From: Desulfobacterales bacterium
GTDB lineage: Bacteria > Desulfobacterota > Desulfobacteria > Desulfobacterales > JAFDDL01
Assembly: GCA_963678885.2 (NCBI GenBank)
Contig: CAXXFG010000005.1
Location: forward strand, 211,512 to 275,511
Reading direction: 5' to 3'
Length of the DNA: 64,000 bases
Below are positions 25,462 through 64,000 of the stretch, piece after piece. Each line of letters begins with the position of its first letter. Positions within the stretch are counted from its first letter, which is position 1. Below the pieces are notes generated by a model. The model had not been told where the DNA came from. It made no database searches and saw nothing but the letters and a program-made list of their open reading frames with translations. Made by a program: the position numbers and the translations under genes.

Positions 25462-26874
25462 TTACAGGTCGTAGTACAGGAAAAACTCGTGGGGATGCGG
25501 TCGGAGGCGAACCGGATTCACTTCGTTTTCCATTTTGTACTCAATCCATTTGGAAATCACATCTTCGGTAAATACGTCGCCCTTGAGCAGGAAGGCGTGA
25601 TCTTCTTTAAGCGCGTTGAGGGCTTCCTCAAGGGAGCCGGGCGCTGATGGAATCCCGGCCAGTTCTTCGGGGGGAAGATCGTAGATGTTCTTGTCCAGGG
25701 GTTCCCCGGGCTCGATCTTGTTCTGGATGCCGTCGAGGACCGCCATCAGGATGGCGGAAAAGGCCAGATAGCCGTTGCAGGACGGGTCCGGGGTTCTGAA
25801 TTCGATGCGCTTGGCTTTGGGGGAGGACGAATACATGGGAATGCGCACCGAGGCACTGCGGTTTCGGCTGGAGTAAGCAAGGTTCACCGGGGCTTCGAAT
25901 CCGGGGACCAGGCGTTTGTAGGAGTTGGTGGTCGGGTTTGTAAAGGCGCATACGGCCTTGCAATGCTTCAGGATGCCGCCGATGGCCCACAGGGCCTCCT
26001 GGCTGACCCCGGCGTACTTGTCGCCGGCGAACAAGGGGGTGCCGTCTTTCCAGATGCTGATGTGGGTGTGCATGCCCGATCCGTTGTCCTCAAACAGGGG
26101 TTTGGGCATGAAGGTCACGGTGCGGTTGTCCCGGTTGGCCACGTTTTTCAGCACATATTTGAACCAGACCAACTGGTCGCCCATCTGCAGAAGGGGCTTG
26201 AAACGCATATCGATTTCCGCCTGGCCGCCGCTGGCCACCTCGTGGTGCTGGCATTCCACATCGATGCCAAGCTGTTCGAGGGTCAGCATCATTTCGGTGC
26301 GCAAATCCTGGAATTTATCCATGGGCGGCACCGGAAAATATCCCTCCTTGTGGCGGGGCTTGTACCCCAGGTTTGGACATTCGTCCCGGCCGCTGTTCCA
26401 GATGCCTTCCACCGAGTCAAGTTCGTAAAAAGCCCGGTTCCGGCCCGACTCGAACCGCACGTCGTCGAAGATGAAAAACTCCGCTTCGGGGCCGATGAAA
26501 GCGGTGTCTCCGATGCCGGTGCTTTTCAGATAGTTCTCCGCCTTGGCGGCGATGTTGCGCGGATCCCGGGTATAAGGTTCCCGGGTCATGGGATCCACGA
26601 TATTGCCGATGAGCACCAGGGTGGGCACCTCGAAAAACGGATCCATCTTGGCCGTGGCGGGATCGGGGATCACCAGCATGTCGCTGGCGTTGATGGGCTG
26701 CCAGCCCCGGATGGAGGAGCCGTCGAATCCGTAGCCGTCTTCAAAGCTCGATTCGTCCAGTTCGCTGACGGGCACGGTAAAATGCTGCCACACGCCGGGG
26801 AAGTCCATGAAACGAATGTCCACCACCCGTGCGCCGTTTTCCTTCGCCATGGCCAATACCTTTTTGCTGTCCAT
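25462..26874 (-). CDS. glnA: Glutamine synthetase type I (adenylylatable)
   Basis: [38 protein letters not shown], adenylylation motif NIYDLP. Confidence 0.98.
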
Positions 26875-26943
26875 AATCCATTACCTCCTACTGTCTGTTT
26901 GTTGATGAAACATGTCTTTTTTCCGGGTTGACGGGGCCTGTTG

Positions 26944-27351
<408 letters not shown>

Positions 27352-27417
27352 TTATCCTACGGTGGAACCGTCGCGGCGCACAACGCTTTTTTTCAGCATG
27401 GGTGCACGGGGAAAGCG

Positions 27418-28707
27418 TCAGAATTCAAAAGCCCGCTCGCCGTGCAGCGAGTTGTCGAGCCCCTTGACTTCTTCTTCGTTGGTAACCCGGAGGCCGCCGG
27501 TAACGAGCCGGGTCACCCAAACGACCACAACCGTGGCCACCGCGGTGTAGGCGGCTGTGGCCATGATGGAGACGAACTGTATCCACAGCTGTTTCGGGTT
27601 GCCGTAAAACAGGCCGGCAGCGCCTTCGGTGATGGCCGGGTCGGCGAATAGGCCTGTGGCGAGGGCGCCCCAGATGCCGCACATGCCGTGGACGCCGAAG
27701 GCATCGAGGGAGTCGTCGTAGCCCATGCGGGGTTTTAGCTTGGCCACACAGTAGAACCCCAGAACGCCTGCGACGAGCCCGATGACCAGGGAGGCACTCA
27801 GCCCCACAAAACCTGCTGCCGGGGTGATGGCCACCAGGCCCGCCACGATGCCCGAAGCGATGCCCAGAAGGGTCGGCTTTCCGGTGGCCATCCATTCCGC
27901 CGCCATCCACGCCAGGGCCGCCGTGGCTGCCGAGGTGTTGGTGACCAGAAAGGCGGAACCTGCCACGCCGTCGGCGGCCAGCTGGCTGCCGGCATTGAAC
28001 CCGAACCAGCCGAACCACAAAAGGGCGGCGCCGAGACTGGTCAGGGTGACGCTGGAGGGAAACATGGCCTCACGTCCGTAGCCCAGGCGCTTTCCAAGCA
28101 TCACGGCCACTACAAGGCCGGCCACGCCAGCGTTGATGTGTACCACGTTGCCGCCGGCGAAATCCAGGGCTCCCATGGCATGCATCCAACCGCCGCCCCA
28201 GACCCAATGGGCGATGGGCGCGTACACCACCGTCAGCCACAGGACGGTGAAGACGAGCCATGCGGAAAATTTGAGCCGGTCCACGATGGCGCCCACCACC
28301 AGGGCCGCGGTGATGCCTGCGAAGGTCATCTGGAACAAAACGAACACAAAGGTGGGAATGGAGCCCGTAAGGCTGTCCGGTCCGATGCCGCCGAGCATCA
28401 GCTGGTCAAGCCCGCCGATCAAGCCGCCGTGATCCGGGCCGAAGGCCAGGGTGTAACCCCATACCACCCAGATGACGCTGGCCAGGCAATACGAGACGAC
28501 GGTCATGGCCAGGGTGTTGAGCAGGTTTTTGTAACGGCTCATGCCGCCGTAGAACAGGGCCAGGCCTGCCGGGGTCATCATCATGACCAGGGCCGTGGAG
28601 ACAATCACCCAAGCGGTGTCGCCGGAGTTGATCTGATCGGCGGCCACGGCCGAGGACCAGGGCCACAGAAGAAAAGTGAAAAATAAGAGGGTCGCCATGC
28701 GTTTCAT
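27418..28707 (-). CDS. amtB: Ammonium transporter
   Basis: GLALFYGG, FQMTFA, AHWVWGGGW, DFAGGNVVH, WFGWFGFNAGS, DDSLDAFGVHG. Confidence 0.97.
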   Translation of the reverse strand: MKRMATLLFFTFLLWPWSSAVAADQINSGDTAWVIVSTALVMMMTPAGLALFYGGMSRYKNLLNTLAMTVVSYCLASVIWVVWGYTLAFGPDHGGLIGGLDQLMLGGIGPDSLTGSIPTFVFVLFQMTFAGITAALVVGAIVDRLKFSAWLVFTVLWLTVVYAPIAHWVWGGGWMHAMGALDFAGGNVVHINAGVAGLVVAVMLGKRLGYGREAMFPSSVTLTSLGAALLWFGWFGFNAGSQLAADGVAGSAFLVTNTSAATAALAWMAAEWMATGKPTLLGIASGIVAGLVAITPAAGFVGLSASLVIGLVAGVLGFYCVAKLKPRMGYDDSLDAFGVHGMCGIWGALATGLFADPAITEGAAGLFYGNPKQLWIQFVSIMATAAYTAVATVVVVWVTRLVTGGLRVTNEEEVKGLDNSLHGERAFEF

Positions 28708-28725
28708 GCAAAATCTCCTTGGTGG

Positions 28726-31362
28726 TTATTGGTCGTTCGCAGGTGTCTCCGCTCCTTCGAGAACGCCGAGGATGGAGGTTTTCAAGTGGTCCACCTGTTC
28801 CGTTGTGTCGACCTTCTGGCCGTCCACGTCCCGTATGTAAAAAACGTCCACCACCTGGTCCGCTTTGGTGGCGATCTTTGCCACCCAAACATCCATGCGG
28901 CATCGGAAGAGGGCGTCGGTGATCAGGAAGAGAAGTCCCGGGAAGTCATATGTGTGGACTTCCAGAATGGTCAGGAAGTCCGAGTCGCTGTTGTTGACCA
29001 CCACCTGGTGGGGCCTGGTTTTGGGTTGGGCCTTGGCGGGCCGGTAGGCGTCGATACGCCTGTGGATTTCCAGGCCCAGGTCGATTTCTCCGCTCAGGGC
29101 GGCTTTCAAGGTCCGGGCCGCTTTGTCCCAGCGGCCCTGTTCCCGGTCCCGGTCGACGGGGGCCGCCACTTCGAAGATGTCCAGGGCCGTGTGGTTCTGC
29201 CATGTGAAAATCCGGGCGTCGAGGATGTCGAAGCCACTGAGGGTCAAGGCGCCGGCCATTTTGGAAAAGAGACCCGGCATGTCCTTTGCGCAGACGGTAA
29301 CGGTGCGGTTGGTCGCCACGTTTCCGGTCTCCACCTGCCACACGAAACGCTCGTCTTTCAGGGAATCGAAAAGGGTCATATGGGCGCGGATGTCCTCCGG
29401 CGCGACGTTGAGCATGTAGCGCGGCGGCATGGCCGACAGCAGCGCGGCGGTGTGGCGCCGCAGATCCCGGTTCGGGGCCAAGCGGATCAGCGCCGCCTTT
29501 TTGGCTTCGATTCCCTCCAGGACCTTGGGGCTGGCCAGCTCACCCTTGCGCAGAATGTTGAGGGTTTTTAAGGTCAGGTCCCGCAGCAGGGCCAGGGTCC
29601 AACTGCTCCAGGCCTTGGGGCCGGTGGAAAGGGAGTCGGCGACGGTGAGAAGATAGAGCATCTTAAGCCGGTTCTCGTCTTTGATGCGCCGGGCGCACAT
29701 GAGGGCCGTGGCTTCCTCGTTTATGTCGCGTCGGGTGGCCGTTTTGATGAGAAACAGGTGTTCTTTGACCAAAAAGGCAACCGTGTCGATTTGGCCGGGC
29801 TCGTAGCCGAAACGTTGGAGGATATCCCGGGTCATGCCCGCGCCCCTGCCTGCATGGTCACTGCCTGGCCGCCCTTTACCGATATCGTGGAGAAGCGCGG
29901 CCCAAAGCAGCAACTTCCTGTTTTTCAGCTCGTTGTAGAAATCCCCGCACAGGGGGTCCCGGCTGATGTCCTCATCGGTACCGAAGGTCTTGATGGTCTG
30001 TACCGTACGCAGGGAGTGCCGGTCCACCGGGTACAGATGGTATTCGTCGTACTGGATGCGATGGGTGATGTCCTTGAACTCCGGAATGCACCGGGCCAAA
30101 AAACCCGTGGACAACATGTCGTCCAGGACATTGAAATCGTAGGTGGTGAGGGTCAGGCACCGCTCGAACGCCCTGACCGCCAGCCGGTCCGCCAGCACCG
30201 ATTGGCCGCCCAGGTGGGAAAATTCCCTGACCAGTCGGCGGCCCGCGGCGCTCAGGGGGATTTTCAGGCGTCCGCTTTCTTCGAAGATGCGCACCAGCAA
30301 CACCGGATTGCTGACAATGGCCTCGGCGCTGGCAAAGCTGAGCATGTCCTTGTCGATGGACAGGCCTTCCACCTGGGGGGGCGCTGCTTTCCGGGTTTTC
30401 GGCAGGAATTTTCGCCGATGGCCCTGCTCGAAGATGTACAGCATGAACAATTGTTTGATGGTCTCCATGTTTTCATGGAGGCGGCAGAGAAACCGTTCCA
30501 CCGCCGACTGGCCGTTGTGGGGGCGGATGCCGATGGCGGGGGGCAGGGTCACCTGGTGCTCGAAGTGCAGCTGGTCGCATTTGCGGCCTGTCAGATGGTG
30601 CAGGTGGTTGCGTACCTGCCAGACGAACTCTACGGACTTCATCAACGCCTGGTGTTCGTCGGGGGCGAGCAGCCCTTGGTGTTCCAGGTCCCGGGCGCTC
30701 TTGATGCCGTACTTGATGTTCGAGAGCCACAAGAGGGTATGGTAATCCCTGAGGCCGCCCTGTCCCTCCTTGAGATTGGGCTCCAGCAGGTAGGAGGAGT
30801 CGCCGAAGTGGTGATGGCGGGCCATGACCCCCTGGAGCAGCTGATGGACAAGTTTTTCGGTTTGCCGGGCAGAGAGCAGCTTGCTGCGCACCCGCTCCAG
30901 CAGGATGGAGTAAAGGGGGCTCATGCCGCAAACCAGCCGGGCGTCCAACAAGGGGGTGAGCACTTCGATGTCGTTTCTGGCAAGGGCGATGCATTCGGAA
31001 ATCGAGCGGATGGCGTAGCCGACGTCAAAGCCCATGTCCCAGAGGGGATAGACCATTTCACGGATCAGGTCGCCGGCTTCCTTGGGCACCTTTTTTTCGA
31101 ACAGGATCAGAAGGTCGATGTCCGAATGCAGGCACTGCTCCTGGCGCCCATAGCCGCCCTGGGCGATCATGGCCCAGGGGGTCCGGTTGCCCAGCAGATG
31201 CCGGCCCGCGGCGCTGATTTCGAAACTTTCCCGGAAATAACGGTCGATCAGCGCCGAATGGTCCTGTAAAAGCGAGGCGGCCTTGCCACGGGTGAACTGG
31301 TCGATCAATTTCCGCCGGTGGGTGTCCAGGGAAATCTGCGGTGTCGGTCTGGTCTGTGTCAT
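28726..31362 (-). CDS. glnD: [Protein-PII] uridylyltransferase/uridylyl-removing enzyme
   Basis: GGYGR...SDIDLL, EPNLKEGQGGLRD, HD domain (LLHDIGKG), two C-terminal ACT domains. Start uncertain (31362 or 31419). Confidence 0.95.
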   Translation of the reverse strand: MTQTRPTPQISLDTHRRKLIDQFTRGKAASLLQDHSALIDRYFRESFEISAAGRHLLGNRTPWAMIAQGGYGRQEQCLHSDIDLLILFEKKVPKEAGDLIREMVYPLWDMGFDVGYAIRSISECIALARNDIEVLTPLLDARLVCGMSPLYSILLERVRSKLLSARQTEKLVHQLLQGVMARHHHFGDSSYLLEPNLKEGQGGLRDYHTLLWLSNIKYGIKSARDLEHQGLLAPDEHQALMKSVEFVWQVRNHLHHLTGRKCDQLHFEHQVTLPPAIGIRPHNGQSAVERFLCRLHENMETIKQLFMLYIFEQGHRRKFLPKTRKAAPPQVEGLSIDKDMLSFASAEAIVSNPVLLVRIFEESGRLKIPLSAAGRRLVREFSHLGGQSVLADRLAVRAFERCLTLTTYDFNVLDDMLSTGFLARCIPEFKDITHRIQYDEYHLYPVDRHSLRTVQTIKTFGTDEDISRDPLCGDFYNELKNRKLLLWAALLHDIGKGRPGSDHAGRGAGMTRDILQRFGYEPGQIDTVAFLVKEHLFLIKTATRRDINEEATALMCARRIKDENRLKMLYLLTVADSLSTGPKAWSSWTLALLRDLTLKTLNILRKGELASPKVLEGIEAKKAALIRLAPNRDLRRHTAALLSAMPPRYMLNVAPEDIRAHMTLFDSLKDERFVWQVETGNVATNRTVTVCAKDMPGLFSKMAGALTLSGFDILDARIFTWQNHTALDIFEVAAPVDRDREQGRWDKAARTLKAALSGEIDLGLEIHRRIDAYRPAKAQPKTRPHQVVVNNSDSDFLTILEVHTYDFPGLLFLITDALFRCRMDVWVAKIATKADQVVDVFYIRDVDGQKVDTTEQVDHLKTSILGVLEGAETPANDQ

Positions 31363-31477
31363 TGCTTGTTGTCTGGTGCTCCGTGATGCGCGTTCCGTGT
31401 TTTGTTGGGGGGCGGTCATGCCGCGTCTCCGCCCGCGTTGGCACCCCACTGGAGCGCGTGTCGTCTAAGGTATATGC

Positions 31478-31626
31478 AGCAATAGGCGTGCCAGGTGCCC
31501 CGGTGTTCGTTTTGCCTGTGTTAATAGAGGCTTGAAAATTGTTTGATTGAAAAAGAAATGCATTAGGCGACAATATTGTAAAAATTGTATCTCAAAAACA
31601 ACAAAAATGAAATAAAACAATTTTGC
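31478..31626 (-). promoter_or_regulatory. Sigma-54 promoter and AT-rich enhancer region for glnD-amtB-PII-glnA
   Basis: Minus strand TGGCACGCCTATTGCT at 31493-31478 (exact -24/-12); IHF-like AATCAAACAATTT at 31548-31536; ACAATATTGT and ACAATTTTGC boxes at 31570 and 31617. Confidence 0.85.
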
Positions 31627-31628
31627 GG

Positions 31629-34559
31629 TCAGGCCGGCCCGAAAAGGCGGTGCCACAAGGCAACGATGCGGTCCCGAAGTGCCTGAAAGGTGTGTTCCGC
31701 TACCACAGCGGGCTTTTCCCTTAGACTGAGCCGATGTGCCATGGCCCGGTAGGCCAGGTAGGCGGTGCGCAGCAGGTGTGCGGTATGGTCGTCGATCAGG
31801 CCGGTTTGGGCCAGGCTCTGGATCAGCCGAACATTGTCGGTCCAGGTGAGCAGACCCGGATGCCGGTGGGCCATCAGCAGGACGACGTATTGCACCATGA
31901 ATTCGATGTCCACCATGGCGCCTGGGTCGTGTTTGAGGTCGAACAGGCCGGGTGCTTGGTTGGTGTGTGTCTGGCGCATGCGCCGGCGCATTTCGGCGAC
32001 TTCCCCGCGCAAGGTTGCGCGATTTCTGGGTTGCGCGAGGGCCCGTTCCCGGATGGCGGCGAAGCGCCGGCGGATTTCAGAATCCCCCCAGATGGCCCGC
32101 GCCCGTACCAGCGCCTGGTGCTCCCAGGTCCAGGCGTCGTTGACCAGATAAGCTTCGAAGGCGTCGATGTGGCTGACGATCAAGCCGGCGTCTCCGCTCG
32201 GCCGCAGGCGCATGTCGGTGTTGTAGAGTACGCCCGCCGGTGTATGGGCGGTGAGCAGATGGATGACCCGTTGCCCCAGGCGGGAATAGAACTGGGCGTT
32301 GTCGATGGGCCGGGGACCGCCGGCGGTGGTGCCGCTGCTGCCGGCATGCAGAAAGACCAGGTCCAGGTCCGATGTGTAGCTAAGTTCGAATCCGCCGAGC
32401 TTGCCGTAGGCAATGACGGCAAAGCCCCGTGCCAGATGCGGATCGGACAGATCGTGGCAGGGGGTGCCGTGTTTGGCCACCAGGTGACGCCACGCCAAGT
32501 CCAGTACCTTGTTTACAGCGGTTTCCGCGATACCGGACAGGTAGTCGCTCACCTTCATGAGGGGCAGGACACCGAAAATATCCGCCGCCGCCACGCGCAG
32601 GGTATTGACCTGTTTAAAAATCCGGAGGGCCTCCATCTGATATTCCAGGTCATCCGGGTCCATGAGCCGGAACCGCCGCTGGAGATCTTCAGCCAGCGCC
32701 GACTGGCCGGAGGGTGTGTACAGGGTGCGCGGATCGAGCAATTCATCGAGAAGCACCGGGTGCCTGGACAGATAGGTGATCAGCCAGGGACTCGCGGCGG
32801 AGAACGCCATCAGCCGTACCAGGGCGTCCGGGTTTTCCACCAGCAGGGACAGGTAGGTGGTGCGCCGCTGAACGATGCGCACCAGATCCAGGGTGCCCCG
32901 GAGGGCATGGATGGGGTGGGCGTTGGCGTGAAACCGGCTGAGCACCATGGGAACCAGACGGTCGAGGCGCCGACGGCCTTCCGGTCCGATGGCGCGGGTT
33001 GCCGGATCCTGGGCGAGCAACTGGAGGGCCGCCATTACGTCCCCGGGCGCGGCAAAGCCGAGATCCGCAAGGGTGTCCACCGCTGCCTGGTCCCTGTCCC
33101 CCCGCAGTGCATCAAGCCATAGCGTGGAGAGCTGTGCTTCCAGGTCCGCCAGCGGCGTGTCCGCTTTCGTTTCCGTCTCCGGCGTATCCATGGCCAGCAG
33201 ATGGCTGAATTGCCGGTGCACAAAGGTCCGGTGGTGGTCGATGGCCGTTTTGAAGGTCGGCCAGTTGGAAAAATCCATGGATGCGGCCAGGCGGTTGCGT
33301 TCTTGATCGGCGGCCGGAAGCACATGGGTTTGACGATCCGCTGCTTCCTGGAGGCGGTTTTCGGTGCGCCTGAGAAACCTGTAGGCCTCTTTTAGTTTAC
33401 GGGCGGTGGGTGTGTCGATGATGCTGTCGGCGGCCAGCTGATCGAGCACCGCCATAATGGAGCGCAGCTGCAGAACCGGCATGACCCCGCCCCGGAGGAG
33501 TTGAAAGATCTGGCCGAAGAATTCAATCTCCCGGATGCCGCCGGGACCGTTCTTGATGTTTTCCCGGATGCCTTTCTTTTTCAATTCATGTTCGATGCTG
33601 CGTTTCATTTCCCGGAAGCTGTCGAACATCGTGTAGTCGATGTACCGTCTGTAGATGAACGGGTTGAGCCGTGCCAGCAGATCCCGGCCCGCCGTCCGGT
33701 CTCCGGCGACGGTGCGCGCCTTGATCCACGCGTAGCGCTCCCACTCCCGCCCCTGGTGCTGGTAATAGTTTTCCATGGCATCGACGCTCATGACCAGGGG
33801 GCCGTTTTCACCATAGGGACGCAGCCGAGGGTCCACTCGGTAGAGGGGGCCATCGGGGGAGGTGCTCCCAAGGATTTTGACATAACGGCGGCACAGGCGG
33901 GTGAAAAATTCCTCCCCGGTCACGTGCTTTTCGCCCCACTGGATGCGGCCCGGCTCTGCGTAAGTGAAGACCAGGTCGATGTCAGATGAAAAATTGAGCT
34001 CGCCGGCGCCCAGTTTTCCCATGCCGATGACCACCAGTTGCGGCAGGCACCCCTCCGCGGTGCGGGGAGGGGTGCCGGTGTCCGTCAATTGGCGTTCCAG
34101 AGCGGACAGAGCCTCCTGGAGGCAGGCATCCGCGAAGGCCGACAGATCCTCCAGGGTTTCGTCCAGGTCGGCCGCACCGGCCAGATCCCGCCAGGCGATG
34201 CGCAGCATTTCCCGGCGCCGGATGCGACAAAGGCAATGGCCGAGGGTCGTGTCGTCCCGGGCCTGGGCAATGCCGTTTCGCACCCGGGTGGGCCATGCGC
34301 TCCGGCTGTAGGCGCGGGCAAGGTCTCCGCTCTGGACCAGATCCGTCAGCAGAGCGGGGGTGCGGATGCAGTTGTCGGCGACAAAGTCACTGAAGGCGAA
34401 TACCCGGCAGGCGGTGGCGGGAATTTTGGCGGATTCCAGGATGCGCAGGTCCCGGGGCGTGGCGGCCCGGCGGAAGGCTGCCCATTTTTCCGCTGCCGCT
34501 TCGGCCAGTTCGGGGGGAAGTCCGGGCGTGGATATCGGGTCAACAGCAGGGTCACTCAT
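31629..34559 (-). CDS. glnE: Glutamine synthetase adenylyltransferase/deadenylase
   Basis: Two nucleotidyltransferase domains (GMGKLGAGELNFSSDIDL; AYGKLGGFELSYTSDLDL), WERYAWIKAR, WEHQALVRAR. Confidence 0.97.
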   Translation of the reverse strand: MSDPAVDPISTPGLPPELAEAAAEKWAAFRRAATPRDLRILESAKIPATACRVFAFSDFVADNCIRTPALLTDLVQSGDLARAYSRSAWPTRVRNGIAQARDDTTLGHCLCRIRRREMLRIAWRDLAGAADLDETLEDLSAFADACLQEALSALERQLTDTGTPPRTAEGCLPQLVVIGMGKLGAGELNFSSDIDLVFTYAEPGRIQWGEKHVTGEEFFTRLCRRYVKILGSTSPDGPLYRVDPRLRPYGENGPLVMSVDAMENYYQHQGREWERYAWIKARTVAGDRTAGRDLLARLNPFIYRRYIDYTMFDSFREMKRSIEHELKKKGIRENIKNGPGGIREIEFFGQIFQLLRGGVMPVLQLRSIMAVLDQLAADSIIDTPTARKLKEAYRFLRRTENRLQEAADRQTHVLPAADQERNRLAASMDFSNWPTFKTAIDHHRTFVHRQFSHLLAMDTPETETKADTPLADLEAQLSTLWLDALRGDRDQAAVDTLADLGFAAPGDVMAALQLLAQDPATRAIGPEGRRRLDRLVPMVLSRFHANAHPIHALRGTLDLVRIVQRRTTYLSLLVENPDALVRLMAFSAASPWLITYLSRHPVLLDELLDPRTLYTPSGQSALAEDLQRRFRLMDPDDLEYQMEALRIFKQVNTLRVAAADIFGVLPLMKVSDYLSGIAETAVNKVLDLAWRHLVAKHGTPCHDLSDPHLARGFAVIAYGKLGGFELSYTSDLDLVFLHAGSSGTTAGGPRPIDNAQFYSRLGQRVIHLLTAHTPAGVLYNTDMRLRPSGDAGLIVSHIDAFEAYLVNDAWTWEHQALVRARAIWGDSEIRRRFAAIRERALAQPRNRATLRGEVAEMRRRMRQTHTNQAPGLFDLKHDPGAMVDIEFMVQYVVLLMAHRHPGLLTWTDNVRLIQSLAQTGLIDDHTAHLLRTAYLAYRAMAHRLSLREKPAVVAEHTFQALRDRIVALWHRLFGPA

Positions 34560-54776: not shown

Positions 54777-55880
54777 ATGTTCATGAATCAGGATACCACC
54801 GGCCGTCGTTGGTTGGACGCGCTCTGGGCATTTTGCACGTCGGTCCGCCTGACCGTGGTGCTGCTGCTTTCGTTGGCGGTGTCATCTGTGTTCGGCACCC
54901 TGATCCCCCAGAACCTCGATCCTGCACTGTATGTCCGGCAATTCGGTCTTCCCCTCTACAGGATATTCGTCGTTCTCGATCTTGTGGACATGTACCATGC
55001 CGGCTGGTTCCGATTTCTGCTGTGCCTGCTGGCGGTAAACGTGGTGGCTTGCTCCCTTGATCGGCTTCCGGGGACGTTGCGGATATTGTCGGGGCGTACG
55101 GCGGTGAAGGAGATCGGGCGACGCCGGCCCCGTCGTGGAGAGCAGACCTTTTCCAGCGCACTTTCGGTGACGGACCTGTGCGAGCGGTTTTTGCCGGTGG
55201 TGAAAAAGCGTTTCGGCGCCCCCACGACAACGACAACACCCCAGGCAATGATGCTGGTGGCCGAACGGGGGCGGTGGACCCGGATCGGTTTCTATCTGGT
55301 GCACCTGAGCATCGTGCTGTTGCTGATGGGCGGGTTGATGGGTTCCCTGTTCGGTTTCGACGGATCGGTCCAGATTCCGGAAGGCGAAACGGCGCACATG
55401 GTTCGATTGAGCAATGGCGGAATGGTGGATCTTGGTTTCGCCGTCCGTTGCGACGATTTTTCAGTGACGTTTTATGCGGGCGGCCGGCCCAAGGAATTCC
55501 GTTCCCGTCTGACCATCCTGGAAAACGGGCAAGCGGTCCTTTCCCGGGATATCGTCGTCAACGATCCCCTCCGCTACCGGGGTGTCAACATCTTTCAGTC
55601 CAGTTACGGCATGCTGGGGCCGGATCGTTACTATACCGGGCTGCAGGTGACCAGAGACCCGGGGGTCTGGGTGGTATATCTCGGGTTCGGATTCCTGATC
55701 GCCGGTTGTTATGTGACTTTTTTTACATCCCACCAACGGTTGGTGGTGGAAATTGTTCCCCAGGCATCCGAAAGCCTGGTGCGGGTGTCGGGCTCGGCCA
55801 ACAAGAACCGGACCGGCATGCAATTGCGTGTACAGCAGATGGCGGATGCGCTGTCCGCCTCCTGCAGATCGCGAACCTGA
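54777..55880 (+). CDS. resB: System II cytochrome c biogenesis protein ResB/Ccs1
   Basis: GTLIPQ, DMYHAGWF, HLSIVLLLMG, VNDPLRYRG..IFQSSYG, YTGLQVTRDPG. Confidence 0.9.
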   Translation: MFMNQDTTGRRWLDALWAFCTSVRLTVVLLLSLAVSSVFGTLIPQNLDPALYVRQFGLPLYRIFVVLDLVDMYHAGWFRFLLCLLAVNVVACSLDRLPGTLRILSGRTAVKEIGRRRPRRGEQTFSSALSVTDLCERFLPVVKKRFGAPTTTTTPQAMMLVAERGRWTRIGFYLVHLSIVLLLMGGLMGSLFGFDGSVQIPEGETAHMVRLSNGGMVDLGFAVRCDDFSVTFYAGGRPKEFRSRLTILENGQAVLSRDIVVNDPLRYRGVNIFQSSYGMLGPDRYYTGLQVTRDPGVWVVYLGFGFLIAGCYVTFFTSHQRLVVEIVPQASESLVRVSGSANKNRTGMQLRVQQMADALSASCRSRT

Positions 55881-55939
55881 TGACTTCCGGGCGGTTCTGA
55901 AATCTTGACCCGCCCGGTATTGCCGGTGTTGAGGAGCAT

Positions 55940-56788
55940 ATGAACAGTTCGCTGATGTTGGCCATCACCACATTGTTGTTTGGTGCCGCCGCCGTGGGAT
56001 ACCTGGCGGCGTGGATTTTCAGGAAGGACGCACTGGGCAGGATTTCCTCCGGGGCATTGTCGCTGGGGGTGGTGGCCAGTACCGGCGGCATCGTTCTGCG
56101 ATGGATTGAGTCCTACCAAATCGGATACGGTCACGCGCCCCTTTCCAACCTTTACGAATCCTTGGTTTTTTTCGCCTGGTCCATCGCCGTGTTATACCTC
56201 GTCGTGGAATGGCGCACCCGAAACCGGGTGATCGGCGCTTTCGTGGCGCCCATTGCCTTGCTCGCCATGGCTTATGCATCCCTGTCCCCCAACATCAGCG
56301 ACCGCATTCAGCCACTGATCCCCGCCCTGAAGAGCAACTGGCTGATTGCCCACGTGGTATCCTGCTTTATCGGATACGCCGCTTTCGCCATCGCCTTCGG
56401 CCTGGGGATCATGTACCTGCTCAAGGGAAAAGGAAAAGATGTGCGGCGACCCCATTCCTTTCTTGCCCGCCTGCCGTCGCCGGACAGCCTGGACGACACC
56501 ATTTTGCAGATGGTGAAATTCGGTTTTTTGTTTTTAACCATTGGCATCATCACCGGCGCGGTTTGGGCCAATTCCGCCTGGGGGCGCTATTGGGGGTGGG
56601 ATCCCAAGGAAACCTGGTCCCTGATCACATGGCTGGTCTATGCGGCCATGCTCCACCTGAGGGTTTTTCTCAGCTGGCGGGGCAAAATGTTTGCCTGCTT
56701 TGCCATCCTCGGGTTCATGGCGGTGCTGTTTACCTATTTCGGCGTCAATCTGCTGCCGGGACTGCACAGCTACGGCAGCATGGAGTGA
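55940..56788 (+). CDS. ccsA: System II cytochrome c biogenesis protein CcsA/ResC
   Basis: HAPLSNLYES, PALKSNWLIAHV, WWD motif WANSAWGRYWGWDPKETW, GLHSY. Confidence 0.95.
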   Translation: MNSSLMLAITTLLFGAAAVGYLAAWIFRKDALGRISSGALSLGVVASTGGIVLRWIESYQIGYGHAPLSNLYESLVFFAWSIAVLYLVVEWRTRNRVIGAFVAPIALLAMAYASLSPNISDRIQPLIPALKSNWLIAHVVSCFIGYAAFAIAFGLGIMYLLKGKGKDVRRPHSFLARLPSPDSLDDTILQMVKFGFLFLTIGIITGAVWANSAWGRYWGWDPKETWSLITWLVYAAMLHLRVFLSWRGKMFACFAILGFMAVLFTYFGVNLLPGLHSYGSME

Positions 56789-57202
56789 ACCCGGGGCGAC
56801 CCCAAGTAGGTGCCACACGTATCTCAAAGAAATGATTCCATGCACGGACAAGATGCGCAGCGGTGAACAAGCGGAGGACATGGGAAACAGGGGCGCCGCC
56901 TTTCGGAGGATTGCCGGTTCGGTTCGGCGGGCTCTTTGCGCTGCCTTGTCCAGTGCTGACCACATATAATGCCCAGCAGGATTGAACGGTGGACATTGTA
57001 GTCCGCAACCACCCACGCCGTAAATTCTGTATTCGGATGCCATACCGTCACCCTGGGGACAAACGGGTTTTTTCTTGACAAAAGAACCGCTTGAATATAC
57101 GGATAGTCCTTCTGATGCTAACAGGTAAAAGATGTCGGCATTCTAGCGGTGGGGGTGCATTTCGGGGTCCTGAAAATTGTTAACACGGAAAACGGAGTTC
57201 CC

Positions 57203-57901
57203 ATGAGCACGAAAGACGGCAAGGTGCTGGAGACGTCATCAGATGCAGTCGATCGGGAAAGCAACGGCGATTCCAGGTCCGGTGGCAATGGGGGAGGGGG
57301 ATGGATCCTCCTCTTTTTTGTTTTAGGGCTGGTGGCCAGTCTGGTCATCGGCTGGGGTGTTTTCCCCATGCTTCTCTACTCAAAAAAAGAGCAGCCCATC
57401 GCCTTTAACCATCGGATGCATGTACAAGAGGTGGACAACGGCTGCCAAAGTTGCCACTACCTGCGTGCCGACGGTACTTTTTCCGGCATTCCCACCCTCG
57501 CCGACTGCATGACCTGCCACGAAGAGCCCATTGGAGAGTCGGAACAGGAAGCCCTGCTCATGGAGCAGTATGTGTACAAGGGCAGAGAAATTCCCTGGCT
57601 TGTCTATGCCCGGCAGCCCGATTGCGTTTTTTTCAGCCATGCGGCCCATCTTCGCATGGCGCGGCTGGATTGCCAAACCTGCCACGGCGATATCGGCGAA
57701 TCCACCCACCCCAGAGCTTACCAGGAAAACCGAATTACCGGCGTCAGCCGGGATGTTTGGGGTCACAACATCGCCGGATTCAAGAAGAATACCTGGGATC
57801 GCATGAAAATGGACGACTGTACGGACTGCCACGACCGGATGACCGGTCGCAGAACCAGCGTGCAGACCGGCCACGACGCATGCTTCGTGTGCCATAAATA
57901 G
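57203..57901 (+). CDS. qrcA: Quinone reductase complex multiheme cytochrome c subunit
   Basis: N-terminal TM anchor; five CxxCH (CQSCH, CMTCH, CQTCH, CTDCH, CFVCH); QPDCVFFSHAAH, RMKMDDC. Confidence 0.9.
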   Translation: MSTKDGKVLETSSDAVDRESNGDSRSGGNGGGGWILLFFVLGLVASLVIGWGVFPMLLYSKKEQPIAFNHRMHVQEVDNGCQSCHYLRADGTFSGIPTLADCMTCHEEPIGESEQEALLMEQYVYKGREIPWLVYARQPDCVFFSHAAHLRMARLDCQTCHGDIGESTHPRAYQENRITGVSRDVWGHNIAGFKKNTWDRMKMDDCTDCHDRMTGRRTSVQTGHDACFVCHK

Positions 57902-57973: not shown

Positions 57974-60244
57974 ATGAAGATAGACAGACGGCATTTTTTG
58001 TCACTGGGAATCGGCGCGGCCGCCGGTACGGCCCTAACACCACTGCCTTGGAAGCTTACGGACGACATTTCCATCTGGACCCAGAACTGGCCATGGGTGC
58101 CTGTTCCCCGGGAGGGCAAGGTCACCCACACCGATACCACCTGTACGCTGTGCCCGGGTGGATGCGGCATCGTGGTGCGGAAGGTGGGCGGGCGGGCCGT
58201 GAAAATCGAGGGAAAGGCGGGGCATCCGGTCAACGACGGCGGCGTCTGCATGTTGGGGTTGTCCTCGTTGCAACTGTTGTACGGTCCCGGCCGGATCAAA
58301 ACCCCCTTGAAGCGGGTGGGACGGCGTGGTGCAGGCAAGTGGGAAAAGATTTCCTGGTCGGCTGCAATGCGGGACGTGGCTGCACAACTCGGAAACCTGC
58401 GGGAAAAGGGGTTGGCCCACACCGTTGCCGCGATAATGCACACGGACCGGGGTACGGTGCCCCAGTTGATGCAGCGGTTTTTGACCGCTTACGGATCGCC
58501 GAACTTTTTCCGCATGCCGTCTGTTGCCGATGCCTACGAGCAAACGCTTTTCCTGATGCAGGGGGCCCAGGCCATGGCGGGGTTCGACCTGGCGCATACC
58601 GATTTTGTGCTGAGCTTCGGCAGCGGACTTGTCGAGGGATGGGGGGCGCCGGTGCATTTGTTCAAGACCCGCAGCCGATGGCAGACGCGGGGCGTGCCGG
58701 TGGTTCAGATCGAACCGCGATTGTCCAATACGGCGGCAAAGAGCGACCAATGGGTGCCGGTCCGGCCGGGTTCCGAAGCGGCCCTGGCACTGGGGATCGC
58801 CCATGTGTTGATACGGGAGAAGCGCATCAGTTCCTTTGTGACGGATGCCGCGTTCGGGTTTGAAAGTCCAGCCGACGCCGGTCTTGCCTGCCGGGGGTTT
58901 AAGCAGCTGATACTCCAGTCCTATGGTCCCGATACGGTGGCCGATATTACCGGTGTCGACGCGGAGCGCATCGTTTCTCTTGCCCGGGCGTTCGCCGATG
59001 CAAAGTATCCTGTCGCCTTGGCGGGGCGGGGGATGGGCACCACTCCCGGCAGCATGTACGATATGATGGCGGTGCATGCCTTGAACGCCCTTGTGGGGGC
59101 TGTCAACCGGAAGGGGGGGGTGTGGGCCGTCCCCGAGCCCGATTACATCCATTGGCCGGTGCCGGAAATGGACGCCGCCGCGGCAGCGGGGATGCAGAAG
59201 GGGCGTCTGGACCGCGCCGGCGGCCGGCAAAGCCCGGGCACACGCTTTCTCATCAATCGATTTGCCGAAACCGTGCTGGAAGGGGAGGCTACCCCTGTCC
59301 AGGCATTGTTGGTGTCGGGGGCCAATCCCGCCTACAGCCTTCCAGGAGTTCCTGCCTTTGAAAAGGCACTGGAAAAAATCCCCTTTGTGGTCAGTTTCTC
59401 CTCATATATGGACGAGACGACTCTCCAGGCGGACCTGATTCTGCCCAATCACATGTTCCTGGAACGCTACGAGGATGTCCCCGCGCCCGCCGGGTTCGCA
59501 AGACCCCTGATCGGCCTCGTCCGGCCGGCCGTTGCCCCGCTTTACGACACGCGTCATGTGGGGGATGTGCTCATCGCCTTGGCCGGTGCCTTGGGAGGCA
59601 GTGTGGGGAAGGCTTTTCCATGGGGGGATTACCAGACTTGTTTGCGTGCCACCCTGGGCAGCAAGTGGGGCCGGCTTCGGCAGGACGGGTTCTGGTGGAA
59701 CCCGTCGTTCGTGCCGCCGGCGGAGGGGTTTGACACGCCGTCGGGGAAATTCGAATTTTGCGTGACCGCCCTCAAAGAGACGGGATCGCCGCCGGAAGCC
59801 TTGCTGCCCCAATATCTGCCGGTGGTGCCGGAGGGAGATGCGGGGAGCTATCCCCTGCTGCTCATGCCCTATGATTCCATGCGACTGGCCGGTGGATACA
59901 CGGGGTCACCGCCGTTCATGATAAAAACCGTACCGGACACGGTGCTGGAACAAGATGTCGGAGGCGTGGAGATCCACCCGGAAACGGCCGCCGGGATCGG
60001 CATCACCGAGGGCGGCCGGGCGCTTCTAAAAACGCCTCGGGGGGAAGTCCGCGTGCGGGCGCATCTGTCCCATCGGGTGCCCCCCGGCGTTGTGGCCATG
60101 CCCCGGGGATTGGGGCACACCGCTTACGATGATTATTTGGCCGGCAAGGGGGCCAACGTTAATGCCCTGATGGCGCCGGTGGAGGATGTCGTCTCCGGCC
60201 AGGACGCCGCTTGGGGCATTCGTGCCAAGCTGACCGTCGTGTAG
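57974..60244 (+). CDS. qrcB: Quinone reductase complex molybdopterin-oxidoreductase-like subunit
   Basis: Tat signal DRRHFL, PWKLTDDISIWTQNW, Mo-bisPGD family fold; operon position. Confidence 0.9.
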   Translation: MKIDRRHFLSLGIGAAAGTALTPLPWKLTDDISIWTQNWPWVPVPREGKVTHTDTTCTLCPGGCGIVVRKVGGRAVKIEGKAGHPVNDGGVCMLGLSSLQLLYGPGRIKTPLKRVGRRGAGKWEKISWSAAMRDVAAQLGNLREKGLAHTVAAIMHTDRGTVPQLMQRFLTAYGSPNFFRMPSVADAYEQTLFLMQGAQAMAGFDLAHTDFVLSFGSGLVEGWGAPVHLFKTRSRWQTRGVPVVQIEPRLSNTAAKSDQWVPVRPGSEAALALGIAHVLIREKRISSFVTDAAFGFESPADAGLACRGFKQLILQSYGPDTVADITGVDAERIVSLARAFADAKYPVALAGRGMGTTPGSMYDMMAVHALNALVGAVNRKGGVWAVPEPDYIHWPVPEMDAAAAAGMQKGRLDRAGGRQSPGTRFLINRFAETVLEGEATPVQALLVSGANPAYSLPGVPAFEKALEKIPFVVSFSSYMDETTLQADLILPNHMFLERYEDVPAPAGFARPLIGLVRPAVAPLYDTRHVGDVLIALAGALGGSVGKAFPWGDYQTCLRATLGSKWGRLRQDGFWWNPSFVPPAEGFDTPSGKFEFCVTALKETGSPPEALLPQYLPVVPEGDAGSYPLLLMPYDSMRLAGGYTGSPPFMIKTVPDTVLEQDVGGVEIHPETAAGIGITEGGRALLKTPRGEVRVRAHLSHRVPPGVVAMPRGLGHTAYDDYLAGKGANVNALMAPVEDVVSGQDAAWGIRAKLTVV

Positions 60245-60289: not shown

Positions 60290-61090
60290 ATGAAAAACGA
60301 ACACCATGTCAAAACAAGATACGGAATGGTCATCGATCTGGACAAATGTACCGGCTGTGGGGCCTGCATGGTGGCCTGCATGTCCGAAAACAATGTTCCG
60401 TTCAAGAAGGATGAGACCGACAAGCTCACCAGCATCACCTGGATGCGCGTCTATCAGCTGACCAATGCAGAGCCATACCCCGATGCGCAAGTGTGCTATC
60501 TGCCCAGGCCCTGTATGCACTGCGCCGGAGAGCACGAGGGACATTCCCCCTGCGTGTCGGTGTGCCCGGCCACGGCTACCGATTACAGCTCCGAGACGGG
60601 CATCGTCAGCCAGATCTACACCCGGTGCTTCGGTTGTCGTTACTGCATGGCGGCCTGTCCCTACCATGCCCGGTATTTCAACTGGTGGGATCCGGTATGG
60701 CCAGAGGGAATGGAGCGATATCTGAATCCCGGCGTTTCACCCCGGATGCGGGGGGTGGTGGAAAAATGCAGTTTTTGTTTCCACCGCTACCAACAGGCCA
60801 AGGACAAGGCCTATGCCGAGGGGCGCCGGGAGCTCGAAGAAGCGGCGTATCAGACCGCCTGCGCCCAGGCCTGCCCGGCCGGTGCCATCACCTTCGGGGA
60901 TCTGTGGAACCCCCGCCACAAGGTGAACCGTCTGGTCGATCCCGATCCGGCGCACCACGGCAAGCCGCGCAATCCGAACGCCTTCAGGATTCTGGAACGG
61001 TTGGGTACCAATCCAAAGGTCTACTACCTGTCCAAGCGGCAATGGGTGCGTAACGCCGCGGACAACGACCGGGGCGCGGCGGCCCGGTGA
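60290..61090 (+). CDS. qrcC: Quinone reductase complex Fe-S subunit (NrfC/DmsB family)
   Basis: CTGCGACMVAC, CMHC...CVSVCP, CFGCRYCMAACP, CSFC...CAQACP. Confidence 0.92.
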   Translation: MKNEHHVKTRYGMVIDLDKCTGCGACMVACMSENNVPFKKDETDKLTSITWMRVYQLTNAEPYPDAQVCYLPRPCMHCAGEHEGHSPCVSVCPATATDYSSETGIVSQIYTRCFGCRYCMAACPYHARYFNWWDPVWPEGMERYLNPGVSPRMRGVVEKCSFCFHRYQQAKDKAYAEGRRELEEAAYQTACAQACPAGAITFGDLWNPRHKVNRLVDPDPAHHGKPRNPNAFRILERLGTNPKVYYLSKRQWVRNAADNDRGAAAR

Positions 61091-61170: not shown

Positions 61171-62418
61171 ATGGATTCTGCACTAATACCTGAGGGTGTC
61201 AAACGATGTCCCACCTGGAAATTCCTGCTGGGCCTGTCCGTGGCCGGGCTGGTGCTTCTGTGGGGGGTGGTGGCGATGCTGCTGTGCTGGTTCAAGGGCC
61301 TCAACCAAACCAACATGAACGATTATTACGGTTTCGCCTTGTGGATTTGGGCGGACCTTGCGGTGATCGCCCTGGGAGGCGGCGCTTTTTTCACAGGGTT
61401 TCTCCGTTACGTGGTGGGCAAAAAGGAACTCAAGAACATTATCAACTATGCCGTGCTGATCGGTGTCATCTGTTATTCGTCCGCGTTGTTGATTCTCGGT
61501 ATCGACGTGGGCCAGCCCCTGCGCAGTTGGTTTATTTTCTGGCATGCCAACGTGCATTCAATGTTGACCGAGGTGGCCTTCTGCCTGTCGTGCTATTTTG
61601 CTGTGCTGTGCATCGAATATCTGCCCCTGGCCTTGGAGAACCGCCAGGTGGGCAAGGTGCCTTTTTTTCACAACCTGAGCCATCACCTCCACGAAGCCAT
61701 GGCTGTTTTCGCCGCCACCGGCGCTTTTTTGAGCTTTTTTCACCAGGGCTCCCTGGGGGGCGTGTCCGGGGTTCTCTATGGCCGGCCCTTCGGGTTCCGG
61801 GAGGGGCTTCTCATCTGGCCCTGGACTTTTTTTCTGTTCACCTGGTCTGCGGCGGCCTGCGGCCCCTGTTTTACGATTTTCGTTACCCGATTGACGGAAA
61901 AAGTGACAGGCAAGCGGTTGGTCAAGCCCGACGTGATTCAGTTGCTGGCAAAAATTGCCGGCTGGATGCTGGCCAGCTACATGGTGGCCAAGATTGCCGA
62001 TACCTTGTGGTGGGCCTTTGTGACCGCACCGTCCAAGGGGTTCCACTGGATGGACTTTTATTCCGGCAACGCCTTGTACACACCGCTGATTTTGTTCACT
62101 GAGATTGTGATCTGCGGTGTGCTGCCGGCGCTGGTCCTAACGATCCGCCCCTTGCGGGAGCGCAACGGGCTGCTGTTCTCGGCGGTGACACTGGCGTCCA
62201 TCGGTGTGTGCCTCAACCGGTGGGTGATGGTGCTTCAGGTCATGGCCGCGCCGGTGATGCCGTTCGACCGATGGGTGCTGTACGTGCCCAGCTGGCAGGA
62301 GGTGGCCACCACAATCCTGCCGGTGGCGTATGGGGTGATCTTTATCATGGTTTCATACCGGTATCTGCCGATTTTCCCCCAGGAGCGGGAACTCAACCCG
62401 GTGGATCCGGCGGTGTGA
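61171..62418 (+). CDS. qrcD: Quinone reductase complex NrfD-family membrane subunit
   Basis: MDSALIPEGVKRC, GFALWIWADLAVIALGGGAF, DVGQPLR, HSMLTEV, HQGSLGG, YRYLPIFPQE. Confidence 0.92.
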   Translation: MDSALIPEGVKRCPTWKFLLGLSVAGLVLLWGVVAMLLCWFKGLNQTNMNDYYGFALWIWADLAVIALGGGAFFTGFLRYVVGKKELKNIINYAVLIGVICYSSALLILGIDVGQPLRSWFIFWHANVHSMLTEVAFCLSCYFAVLCIEYLPLALENRQVGKVPFFHNLSHHLHEAMAVFAATGAFLSFFHQGSLGGVSGVLYGRPFGFREGLLIWPWTFFLFTWSAAACGPCFTIFVTRLTEKVTGKRLVKPDVIQLLAKIAGWMLASYMVAKIADTLWWAFVTAPSKGFHWMDFYSGNALYTPLILFTEIVICGVLPALVLTIRPLRERNGLLFSAVTLASIGVCLNRWVMVLQVMAAPVMPFDRWVLYVPSWQEVATTILPVAYGVIFIMVSYRYLPIFPQERELNPVDPAV

Positions 62419-62512
62419 GGGGCACAAGGACGGCGCGGTAAACAAATACGCAACCGTATATCGTGACGGCTGCTGGCGGTTCGCCTCGGCGTGAACCGGG
62501 GAGGAGTAGGTT

Positions 62513-62671
62513 ATGTTCCCTTTTTCTTTCGAGTGGTTGTGGGATATGGGGCACATCGTGTTTCACGGGGGATTGTGGTATGCCCTGTCCATCATTGGGT
62601 TGGGGCTTGCCTATTGCGTCATCAGGGCGGCCATCGACACCGCCCGGGGGAAGGGGGCTTCCCAGCATTGA
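62513..62671 (+). CDS. Small (52 aa) single-TM membrane protein downstream of qrcD, not in the ORF track
   Basis: RBS GAGGAG 7 nt upstream of ATG; MFPFSFEWLWDMGHIVFHGGLWYALSIIGLGLAYCVIRAAIDTARGKGASQH; terminator follows. Confidence 0.8.
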   Translation: MFPFSFEWLWDMGHIVFHGGLWYALSIIGLGLAYCVIRAAIDTARGKGASQH

Positions 62672-62697
62672 TGGGGGCGTCCCGGAATCTACTTTCG

Positions 62698-62734
62698 GCG
62701 CTTCCCGCGATGAGCGGGGGGGCGCTTTTTTTTT
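62698..62734 (+). terminator. Intrinsic terminator of the qrc operon
   Basis: GCGCTTCCCGC-GATGA-GCGGGGGGGCGC hairpin plus T9. Confidence 0.8.
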
Positions 62735-62746
62735 GATCGGAGAGCG

Positions 62747-64000
62747 ATGTATAAAATTCTGATAGACGGCGGGCGGCGGCTCAGCGGAGACGTCACCATC
62801 AGCGGGGCCAAGAATGCGGCCCTGCCCATTTTGGTATCGTCCCTGATGGCGGAGGGAGAGAGTACCTATGCCAATGTTCCCCTGCTGCGGGATATTGAAA
62901 GTGTCAAAGAACTGCTGGGGAGCCTCGGGGCAAAGGTCGGGGGGCGGGATAACACAGTGACCATCGATGCCTCTGGCCTGTGCTGCCCGGAGGCCGAATA
63001 CGAACTGGTGCGGAAGATGCGCGCTTCAATTCTGGTGCTGGGTCCCCTGGTGGCCCGGCTTGGTCGGGCCCGGGTATCTCTTCCCGGCGGGTGCGCCATC
63101 GGTGCCCGGCCCATCGATCTGCACCTGCGGGGGCTTCGCCGCATGGGAGCGGAAATCGAACTCAGCCACGGCTATGTGGAGGCCAGGGCGAAAAAACTGA
63201 TTGGCGCCGAGATCTATCTGGATGTGGCCACGGTCACTGGGACGGAAAACCTGATGATGGCCGCTACCCTGGCCGAGGGCACCACGGTGCTGCGCAATGC
63301 CGCCCGGGAGCCAGAGATTGTCGCCCTGGCTGATGTGCTCAACCGGATGGGGGCGGACATTCAGGGGGCGGGGACCCCCCTGATGACCATTCGGGGTGTT
63401 TCGCATCTCGCGCCGGTGTCGGTGTCCATCATCCCCGACCGGATCGAGGCCGGTACCTTCATGGTGGCCGCAGCCCTCACCCGGGGGGATGTGACGGTTC
63501 GCAACTGCGCCCCGGCGCATCTGGAAGCGGTGATTCACAAGCTTCGTCTGACCGGTGCAACGGTGGCCGTGGAGGCCGATTCGGTGCGGGTGCAAGGGGC
63601 GGACGCCATTACCAGTGTGGATGTGAAGACATTGCCGTATCCGGGTTTCCCCACCGACATGCAGGCCCAGTTTATGGTGCTGATGAGTGTGGCTTCGGGG
63701 CTTAGTTTGATTTCAGAGACAATTTTCGAAAACCGTTTCATGCATGTGAGCGAGCTGCAACGAATGGGGGCCGATATCACCATTTCCGGCAGTGCGGCCA
63801 TGGTCCGGGGGGTGCAGCGGCTTTCCGGGGCGCCCGTGATGGCCAGTGATTTGCGGGCAAGCGCGTGCCTGATTTTGGCGGGGCTGGTGGCCGGCGGCAC
63901 CACCGAAGTGAACAGGGTCTATCACCTCGATCGGGGATATGAGGCCCTGGAAGAAAAATTTGCCGGACTGGGCGCGGCGATCCGGCGTGTCAAGACCTGA
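62747..64000 (+). CDS. murA: UDP-N-acetylglucosamine 1-carboxyvinyltransferase
   Basis: [54 protein letters not shown]; stop at 63998-64000. Confidence 0.98.

Follow-up and report, generated by a model that had tools for sequence, protein, structure and literature searches.

The window, that is, the whole stretch of 64,000 nucleotides of Desulfobacterales DNA analysed here, carries close to its end the four genes qrcA to qrcD, together with a short open reading frame (ORF) behind qrcD that is the subject of this report (Table 1). The four genes were assigned with the NCBIfam QrcA to QrcD models, which are equivalog models with curated cut-offs, and all four cut-offs were exceeded. The translated qrcA contains Pfam cytochrome c3/c7 domains; its start is uncertain, as the QrcA model covers residues 55–250 of the ORF. 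The NCBIfam HmcC model also matches the window's NrfD-type QrcD. For qrcD, the ATG at 61171 is the likely start rather than TTG 61123, with which the ORF begins, since the QrcD model matches from residue 17 of the long ORF, homologues are 412–416 aa long and an AGGAG motif lies about 9 nt before the ATG. The long form of the gene, starting at TTG 61123 instead of at MDSAL..., probably over-extends it by 16 codons.

The cytochrome c biogenesis genes that precede the operon recur in the related loci described below, with resB upstream in 30 of 48 and ccsA in 40 of 54 loci that provide enough DNA. In Desulfococcus multivorans, according to the extracts of the paper used here, qrc adjoins the ccsAB cytochrome biogenesis genes and four Qrc subunits are given (PMC5109826). 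Elsewhere in the window, a nitrogen-regulation cluster occupies 25465–34559 on the minus strand and comprises glnA, an ammonium transporter gene, glnD (PII uridylyltransferase) and glnE (GS adenylyltransferase), all above NCBIfam cut-offs, while the N-terminal 142 residues encoded by an ORF at 9705–10754 (+) resemble a REP-associated tyrosine transposase with 62.8 bits (cut-off 80).

Table 1 Features of the qrc region, with positions counted from the first nucleotide of the window.
Feature	Coordinates	Strand	Basis or remark
resB (ccsB) and ccsA, system II cytochrome c biogenesis	54777-56788		directly upstream of qrcA
qrcA, multiheme cytochrome c subunit	57149..57901	+	NCBIfam NF041781 QrcA, 251.1 bits (cut-off 180)
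qrcB, molybdopterin-oxidoreductase-like subunit	57974..60244	+	NCBIfam NF041783 QrcB, 502.7 bits (cut-off 440)
qrcC, 4Fe-4S subunit	60290..61090	+	NCBIfam NF041782 QrcC, 441.5 bits (cut-off 400)
qrcD, NrfD-type integral membrane subunit	61171..62418	+	NCBIfam NF041784 QrcD, 669.2 bits (cut-off 570)
Spacer between qrcD and small ORF, without terminator	62419..62512	+	94 nt; fold and terminator scan
Shine-Dalgarno sequence GGAGGAG	62500-62506	+	6 nt before the ATG of the small ORF
Small ORF, 52 codons plus stop	62513..62671	+	predicted single-pass membrane protein, N-terminus periplasmic, C-terminus cytoplasmic
Intrinsic terminator	62697..62734	+	GC-rich hairpin 62697-62725, then T9 62726-62734
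murA, not part of the qrc unit	62747..64000	+	Pfam EPSP_synthase, 383 bits

A conserved reading frame behind qrcD

The small ORF starts with ATG, and its translation is identical to the peptide given in an earlier, sequence-only reading of this DNA, which had described an ORF with a strong ribosome-binding site, no obvious terminator between qrcD and the ORF, and a clear terminator behind it. That description proved accurate: ORF and ribosome-binding site are both present, no terminator-like site on the plus strand separates the stop codon of qrcD (62418) from the ATG, and a hairpin followed by a T9 run lies beyond the ORF. Folding of the spacer came out no better than that of shuffled sequences (z 0.76). 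Longer ORFs that overlap the small ORF are frame artefacts of a GC-rich genome.

Related qrc loci were collected by a genome scan with a QrcD alignment, which returned 570 relatives. The best 80 of these 570 were used with one genome per species, which are the loci closest to the window's QrcD (73–87% QrcD identity) and stem from Desulfobacterales-type sulfate reducers. The six-frame ORFs of all 80 loci were searched with a hidden Markov model (HMM) built from the small protein. The small ORF turned up in 79 of the 79 loci that extend past qrcD, once per locus and in every case shortly behind qrcD in the same orientation; the contig of the 80th locus (L061) stops inside qrcD, and that of L064 is cut after codon 19 of the small ORF. 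With the window included, an ATG start and a Shine-Dalgarno-like motif at most 20 nt upstream of it were present in 80 of 80 sequences each. The small ORF follows the qrcD stop at a median distance of 23 nt (range −20 to 195), and in 57 of 80 cases this distance is at most 30 nt. The 94-nt spacer of the window is longer than this median, its extra sequence having no special fold, and in two loci (L022 and L034) the small ORF begins within the computed qrcD, with an overlap of 20 nt.

Wherever a locus provides enough DNA, the other qrc genes lie upstream on the same strand (qrcA 61/61, qrcB 64/64, qrcC 71/71). With a simple hairpin-plus-T-run test, terminator-like sites were found in none of the 24 loci whose gap between qrcD and the small ORF is at least 30 nt, and within 110 nt after the small ORF in 58 of the 76 loci with enough DNA, in agreement with the window.

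The selection statistics were computed on the first 44 codons of 78 sequences, from which the truncated L064 and L015, which has a one-residue insertion, were excluded. Nucleotide diversity at codon positions 1, 2 and 3 was 0.22, 0.13 and 0.51, the third position thus being the most variable. Mean pS was 0.75 and mean pN 0.17, giving a pN/pS of 0.23, and the median dN/dS was 0.12 when taken over unsaturated pairs only (1288 of 3003). Stop codons interrupt the five other frames in 75, 73, 28, 68 and 77 of the 78 sequences. In matched sets of 74 sequences and 600 random pairs, pN/pS was 0.235 for the small ORF vs 0.181 for QrcD. The small ORF is under purifying selection, with a constraint close to that of QrcD, and the conservation pattern lies far beyond chance expectation. 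Synteny and purifying selection downstream of qrcD had been named by the sequence-only reading as a check on its proposal, and both were found. A broad-family HMM detected no second copy in any six-frame ORF of either the window or the 80 loci, the next best hit having an E-value of 0.21.

The gene following the small ORF is less constant. murA comes next in 60 of the 80 sequences, which is frequent but not invariable; 13 of the 20 loci without it are contig ends, and the other seven have more than 4 kb of downstream DNA. In these seven, genes for a TatD-like protein, an AAA ATPase, a HAD hydrolase with RecD2, a GAF protein and unknowns are found instead. As the small ORF is kept whatever gene comes next, its linkage is to qrcD and not to the following gene. 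The frequent presence of murA could be read as a sign that the ORF encodes a leader peptide or acts as a regulatory ORF for murA, a notion whose probability we regard as negligible. A terminator-like site separates the two in the window as well as in the loci counted above, the small ORF and murA are a median of 123.5 nt and up to 1060 nt apart, the seven loci lacking murA over more than 4 kb still have the small ORF, and amino-acid constraint extends over the whole length of the peptide, unlike in leader peptides. No Rfam element was detected in the region either, the only match being a sub-threshold ctRNA hit on the terminator (18.2 bits, gathering score 50). Because qrcABC are upstream wherever the DNA reaches, the downstream genes vary, and terminator-like sites usually follow the ORF but are absent from the gaps tested before it, we conclude that the qrc operon ends with the small ORF as its last cistron and that the ORF is no murA leader. 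That it is a real gene and a member of this operon we consider nearly certain.

Protein features and family breadth

The positive-inside rule governs the orientation of membrane helices. As the hydrophobic maximum of the small protein spans approximately residues 15–43, with a net charge of −2 before and +2 after it, a single transmembrane helix with a periplasmic N-terminus and a cytoplasmic C-terminus is predicted. Sites for tryptic cleavage are scarce in the protein. Among 50 close relatives, the residues M1, P3, E7, W8, D11, H14, F17, G19, L21, W22 and G31 are invariant; among 74 sequences derived from the loci, these are M1, P3, F6, E7, W8, W10, H14, F17 and G19. The conserved core in these alignments is an acidic, aromatic N-terminal segment (consensus MFPFxFEWxWD) that is followed by the helix. 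In a distant alignment of 44 sequences, consisting of the window protein and 43 representatives, the same segment remains recognizable, with E7 kept in 43, F17 in 43, G19 in 44, P3 in 41 and W10 in 40 sequences.

The sequence-only reading had pointed to a pair of histidines (H-x3-H) at the beginning of the helix and suggested that it could contact quinone or heme or join the proton path. The pair is present in the window's protein, but it is not conserved across the family, and the proposed function is contradicted by the alignments. Position 14 is His in 80 of 80 close sequences, and in the 44 distant ones it is H in 32, R in 6, Y in 4, Q in 1 and D in 1. Position 18 (window 62564–62566) is Met in 48 and His in 32 of the 80 close sequences, with no other residue, and in the distant set it is M in 20, F in 18, L in 4, H in 1 and Y in 1. 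The codons for position 18 in the close sequences are ATG vs CAC or CAT, which differ in all three bases, and no intermediate residue was seen. On the best QrcD tree, six changes between H and M are counted; as just one of them is forced by well-supported branches, repeated independent switches are not claimed. A terminal His-His pair is present in 61 of 79 close sequences, while the tail (window 62654–62668) is otherwise variable; in the distant set, a C-terminal H occurs in 18 and HH in 9 of the 44 sequences. Long tails rich in His, Asp and Glu were seen in five loci (L006, L012, L028, L037 and L047).

A word-indexed search of 5.8 billion proteins, restricted to lengths of 28–91 residues, returned 77 relatives at E≤0.01, which are mostly 51–57 aa long and share 57–81% identity. 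Few of the homologues are named, and these few are entered as 'hypothetical protein' from Desulfobacterales metagenome-assembled genomes (MAGs). A profile search of 1.84 billion representatives clustered at 50% identity yielded 79 matches at E≤1e-3 and 20 at E≤1e-10; the named relatives comprise one record from Desulfocarbo indianensis and one from Candidatus Abyssubacteria. Two matches of this representative search were dismissed as spurious, namely P0207, which has 2099 aa and contains PKD repeats, and P0260, which has 206 aa and repeats within its sequence. Three further proteins of 203–284 aa (P0261, P0265 and P0268) share the N-terminal module (here MFPxxxEFxWDxGH) and the helix, behind which a Cys-rich stretch and then a GcvH-like domain are found. 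P0261 and P0265 exceed the cut-off of Pfam GCV_H (22.2), the two scores being 25.5 and 31 bits, with P0268 remaining below it at 17.6 bits. By their domain order, these three look like membrane-tethered H-protein-like carriers. In view of the GcvH-fused forms and of the members in Desulfocarbo and Abyssubacteria, the N-terminal module may not be specific to Qrc.

No Pfam-A or NCBIfam model matched the small protein above its cut-off, and none matched its 43 distant relatives consistently; the best family match below cut-off was DUF6693 (E 0.057, 14.1 bits, cut-off 31). A profile search against PDB chains gave no relative, the best E-value of 0.42 being at chance level, and no chain of alternative complex III (ACIII) was among the 12 matches listed. 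In a plasmid collection, neither the small protein nor QrcD had a match, and the fused P0265 matched ordinary gcvH genes only. A fusion to QrcD was also sought among longer proteins; the search gave three matches of 93–116 aa, none of them fused to QrcD, whose tails look like products of read-through or frameshift. The 423-aa P0349, which seems to resemble MraY, shares a 90% cluster with the 49-aa member P0228 without visible resemblance, probably as a clustering artefact. Overall, the small protein constitutes a new small-protein family of what is probably a known kind, namely small accessory subunits of respiratory complexes, and one that gene callers treat unevenly.

Proposed role of the small protein beside Qrc

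Co-folding with QrcD had been proposed by the sequence-only reading, and we performed it with QrcD and the small protein, each alignment being drawn from the same loci, along with three controls. The score was 0.49 (runs 0.47, 0.49 and 0.54) and the best control reached 0.00; the result was classed as 'weak support', with no interface reported. The runs share at least 73% of their contacts, and the pLDDT of the partner is at least 66. The mark for a pass is reached by 116 of 157 solved complexes and by 2 of 215 mismatched pairs, and scores up to 0.60 comprise 18 of the 157 solved complexes together with both mismatches that pass. According to the prediction tool, passes in this weak band are wrong in the majority of cases, except where contact was already a likely guess. 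Operon linkage makes contact with QrcD a fairly likely guess in advance, and the co-fold still counts as soft evidence. Mutual information between QrcD and the small protein yielded nothing interpretable, the top pairs looking phylogenetic.

Most likely, the small protein acts with Qrc, either as a subunit bound to QrcD or as an assembly factor. We assign a probability of roughly 0.55 to the reading that it is a candidate accessory, and thus fifth, subunit bound to Qrc. Of the original proposal of a co-transcribed Qrc subunit, the placement as a co-oriented last qrc gene and the purifying selection have held up, and the mechanism built on the histidine pair has not. The small protein would be translated from the qrcABCD transcript and act with Qrc, its transmembrane helix packing against QrcD. 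Judging from the topology, the N-terminal MFPFxFEWxWD segment would lie at the periplasmic membrane surface, the face on which QrcD meets QrcC and on which the models of others place the menaquinone site. The C-terminal tail, which is short, basic and in most sequences closed by His-His, would reside in the cytoplasm, on the side of QrcD proton uptake. Its role would be structural, as it may stabilize or seal the QrcCD quinone module or anchor a neighbouring helix, presumably without a redox function.

Observations that count against a fifth subunit include the description of Qrc purified from Desulfovibrio/Nitratidesulfovibrio as four subunits, the weak band of the co-fold score and the reach of the family into GcvH-fused forms. 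As a technical point, 10% SDS-PAGE would not resolve a 6-kDa peptide. In the extracts of the Nitratidesulfovibrio vulgaris study, the Qrc gels are of this 10% SDS-PAGE format, qrcABCD supplied in trans restores growth, and purified recombinant Qrc is active in liposomes (PMC13059093). From the latter two results it follows that no fifth protein would be needed in N. vulgaris, unless one was overlooked or has its gene at another site.

The isolation of N. vulgaris Qrc as an active complex of four subunits (PMC13059093, from extracts) also fits the main rival to the subunit reading, in which the small protein is an assembly or maturation factor that aids membrane insertion or the docking of the QrcABC head onto QrcD and is absent from the mature complex. 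Synteny and selection speak for this rival just as they do for the subunit reading, and the operon adjoins the cytochrome c biogenesis genes resB and ccsA; nevertheless, we deem it unlikely, because the co-fold with QrcD passed its controls, albeit weakly, because a QrcD-like constraint along the whole helix is more typical of a permanent packing partner, and because Pfam and NCBIfam searches showed no resemblance to a known family of assembly factors. Somewhat lower still do we rate the idea of a generic small membrane module that has an independent function, which tethers or regulates another partner and merely happens to sit on the qrc transcript here. The 79 representatives at 50% clustering, with Desulfocarbo and Candidatus Abyssubacteria among them, and the GcvH-like fusions P0261, P0265 and P0268 speak for such a module, but in all 79 loci that extend past qrcD the ORF stays close behind it (median 23 nt) irrespective of the next gene, no second copy occurs in the window or the 80 loci, and the co-fold controls stayed at 0.00.

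That the small protein is a redox-active or ligand-binding subunit, in which the histidine pair or the WxWD-like motif binds heme, metal or quinone, appears very unlikely to us. The invariance of H14 among the close sequences, the restriction of position 18 to His or Met, both of which are able to ligate heme iron or copper, and the frequent terminal His-His would suit such a role. However, positions 14 and 18 both vary among the 44 distant representatives, a change that a ligand pair would not tolerate, and QrcD-type subunits are given as cofactor-free in the extracts of PMC13059093. A bolder extension of the accessory-subunit reading, which we consider a long shot, would make the N-terminal module and its helix a so far undescribed, widely distributed docking unit for NrfD-type quinone-reactive subunits: the Desulfobacterales Qrc would then have five subunits, the His-rich tail would gather protons at the uptake mouth of QrcD, and elsewhere the module would tether a GcvH-like carrier to a redox complex.

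Complete-oxidising Desulfobacterales dominate marine sulfate reduction. Qrc is counted among the three main membrane complexes that transduce energy in sulfate respiration and is described as the only NrfD-type complex experimentally shown to be electrogenic (PMC13059093), and the Qrc papers, as far as their extracts go, rely on homology models and cite no experimental structure (PMC13059093, PMC5109826). If the Desulfobacterales Qrc indeed has a fifth membrane subunit, models of the quinone site and of the proton path should include it, as should heterologous expression constructs and future cryo-EM maps. A fifth subunit could also bear on the abundant, constitutive Qrc reported in extracts on species unable to use H2 or formate (PMC5109826).

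Comparison with known complexes

Comparisons of Qrc are most often made with ACIII, and the statement of the sequence-only reading that related ACIII assemblies carry extra small membrane subunits is borne out by ActD and ActG, small cofactor-free membrane subunits beside the NrfD-type ActC (PMC5928083, cited from extracts here and below). ActD contacts helices of ActC next to the quinol site and consists of two helices with cytoplasmic beta-alpha-beta motifs at both ends, and ActG has one predicted helix, is missing from some act clusters and is unresolved in the structure (PMC5928083). With one hydrophobic stretch in 52 residues, the small protein differs from ActD, which has two helices and a domain.

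In cbb3 oxidase, CcoM is a subunit of 36 aa, according to the extracts of PMC10433244. Oxidase subunits of the CcoM type belong to an unrelated complex, and their membership is proven by structure or biochemistry, whereas the small protein is known from genes and predictions; by description, the two are nonetheless alike, as these subunits likewise have about 35–55 residues, belong to a respiratory membrane complex and were overlooked by annotation.

HmcD of the HmcABCDEF complex is a single-helix membrane protein. Extracts of PMC10920352 list it as DVU_0533 with 5.8 kDa, and its locus tag adjoins that of HmcC (DVU_0534), which we take to be of the NrfD type because the NCBIfam HmcC model matches the window's QrcD. 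HmcD is thus a tiny protein beside an NrfD-type gene of a sulfate-respiration complex, and its likeness to the small protein is one of arrangement, not of kinship. A language-model search placed the HmcD cluster (47-aa proteins) among the nearest named clusters with 0.75, a sub-threshold lead. No HmcD match was obtained for the 44 sequences in NCBIfam and Pfam at E≤10, although these libraries may lack an HmcD model, and there is no hmc gene among 36 of the window's 54 long ORFs, all of which lie upstream of 54720.

The closest reference is the published QrcABCD of Desulfovibrio and Nitratidesulfovibrio, to whose four genes those in the window correspond by the NCBIfam equivalog models. The sequence-only reading had stated that Qrc is described as a complex of four subunits, and this still applies in the extracts of both Qrc papers (PMC13059093, PMC5109826), of which the former, published in 2026 by the group that discovered Qrc, presents four subunits in a homology model. 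A published fifth Qrc subunit or QrcE was not found in the openly accessible literature covered. In contrast to the four subunits described there, a fifth conserved gene follows qrcD in all 79 Desulfobacterales-type loci that extend past it.
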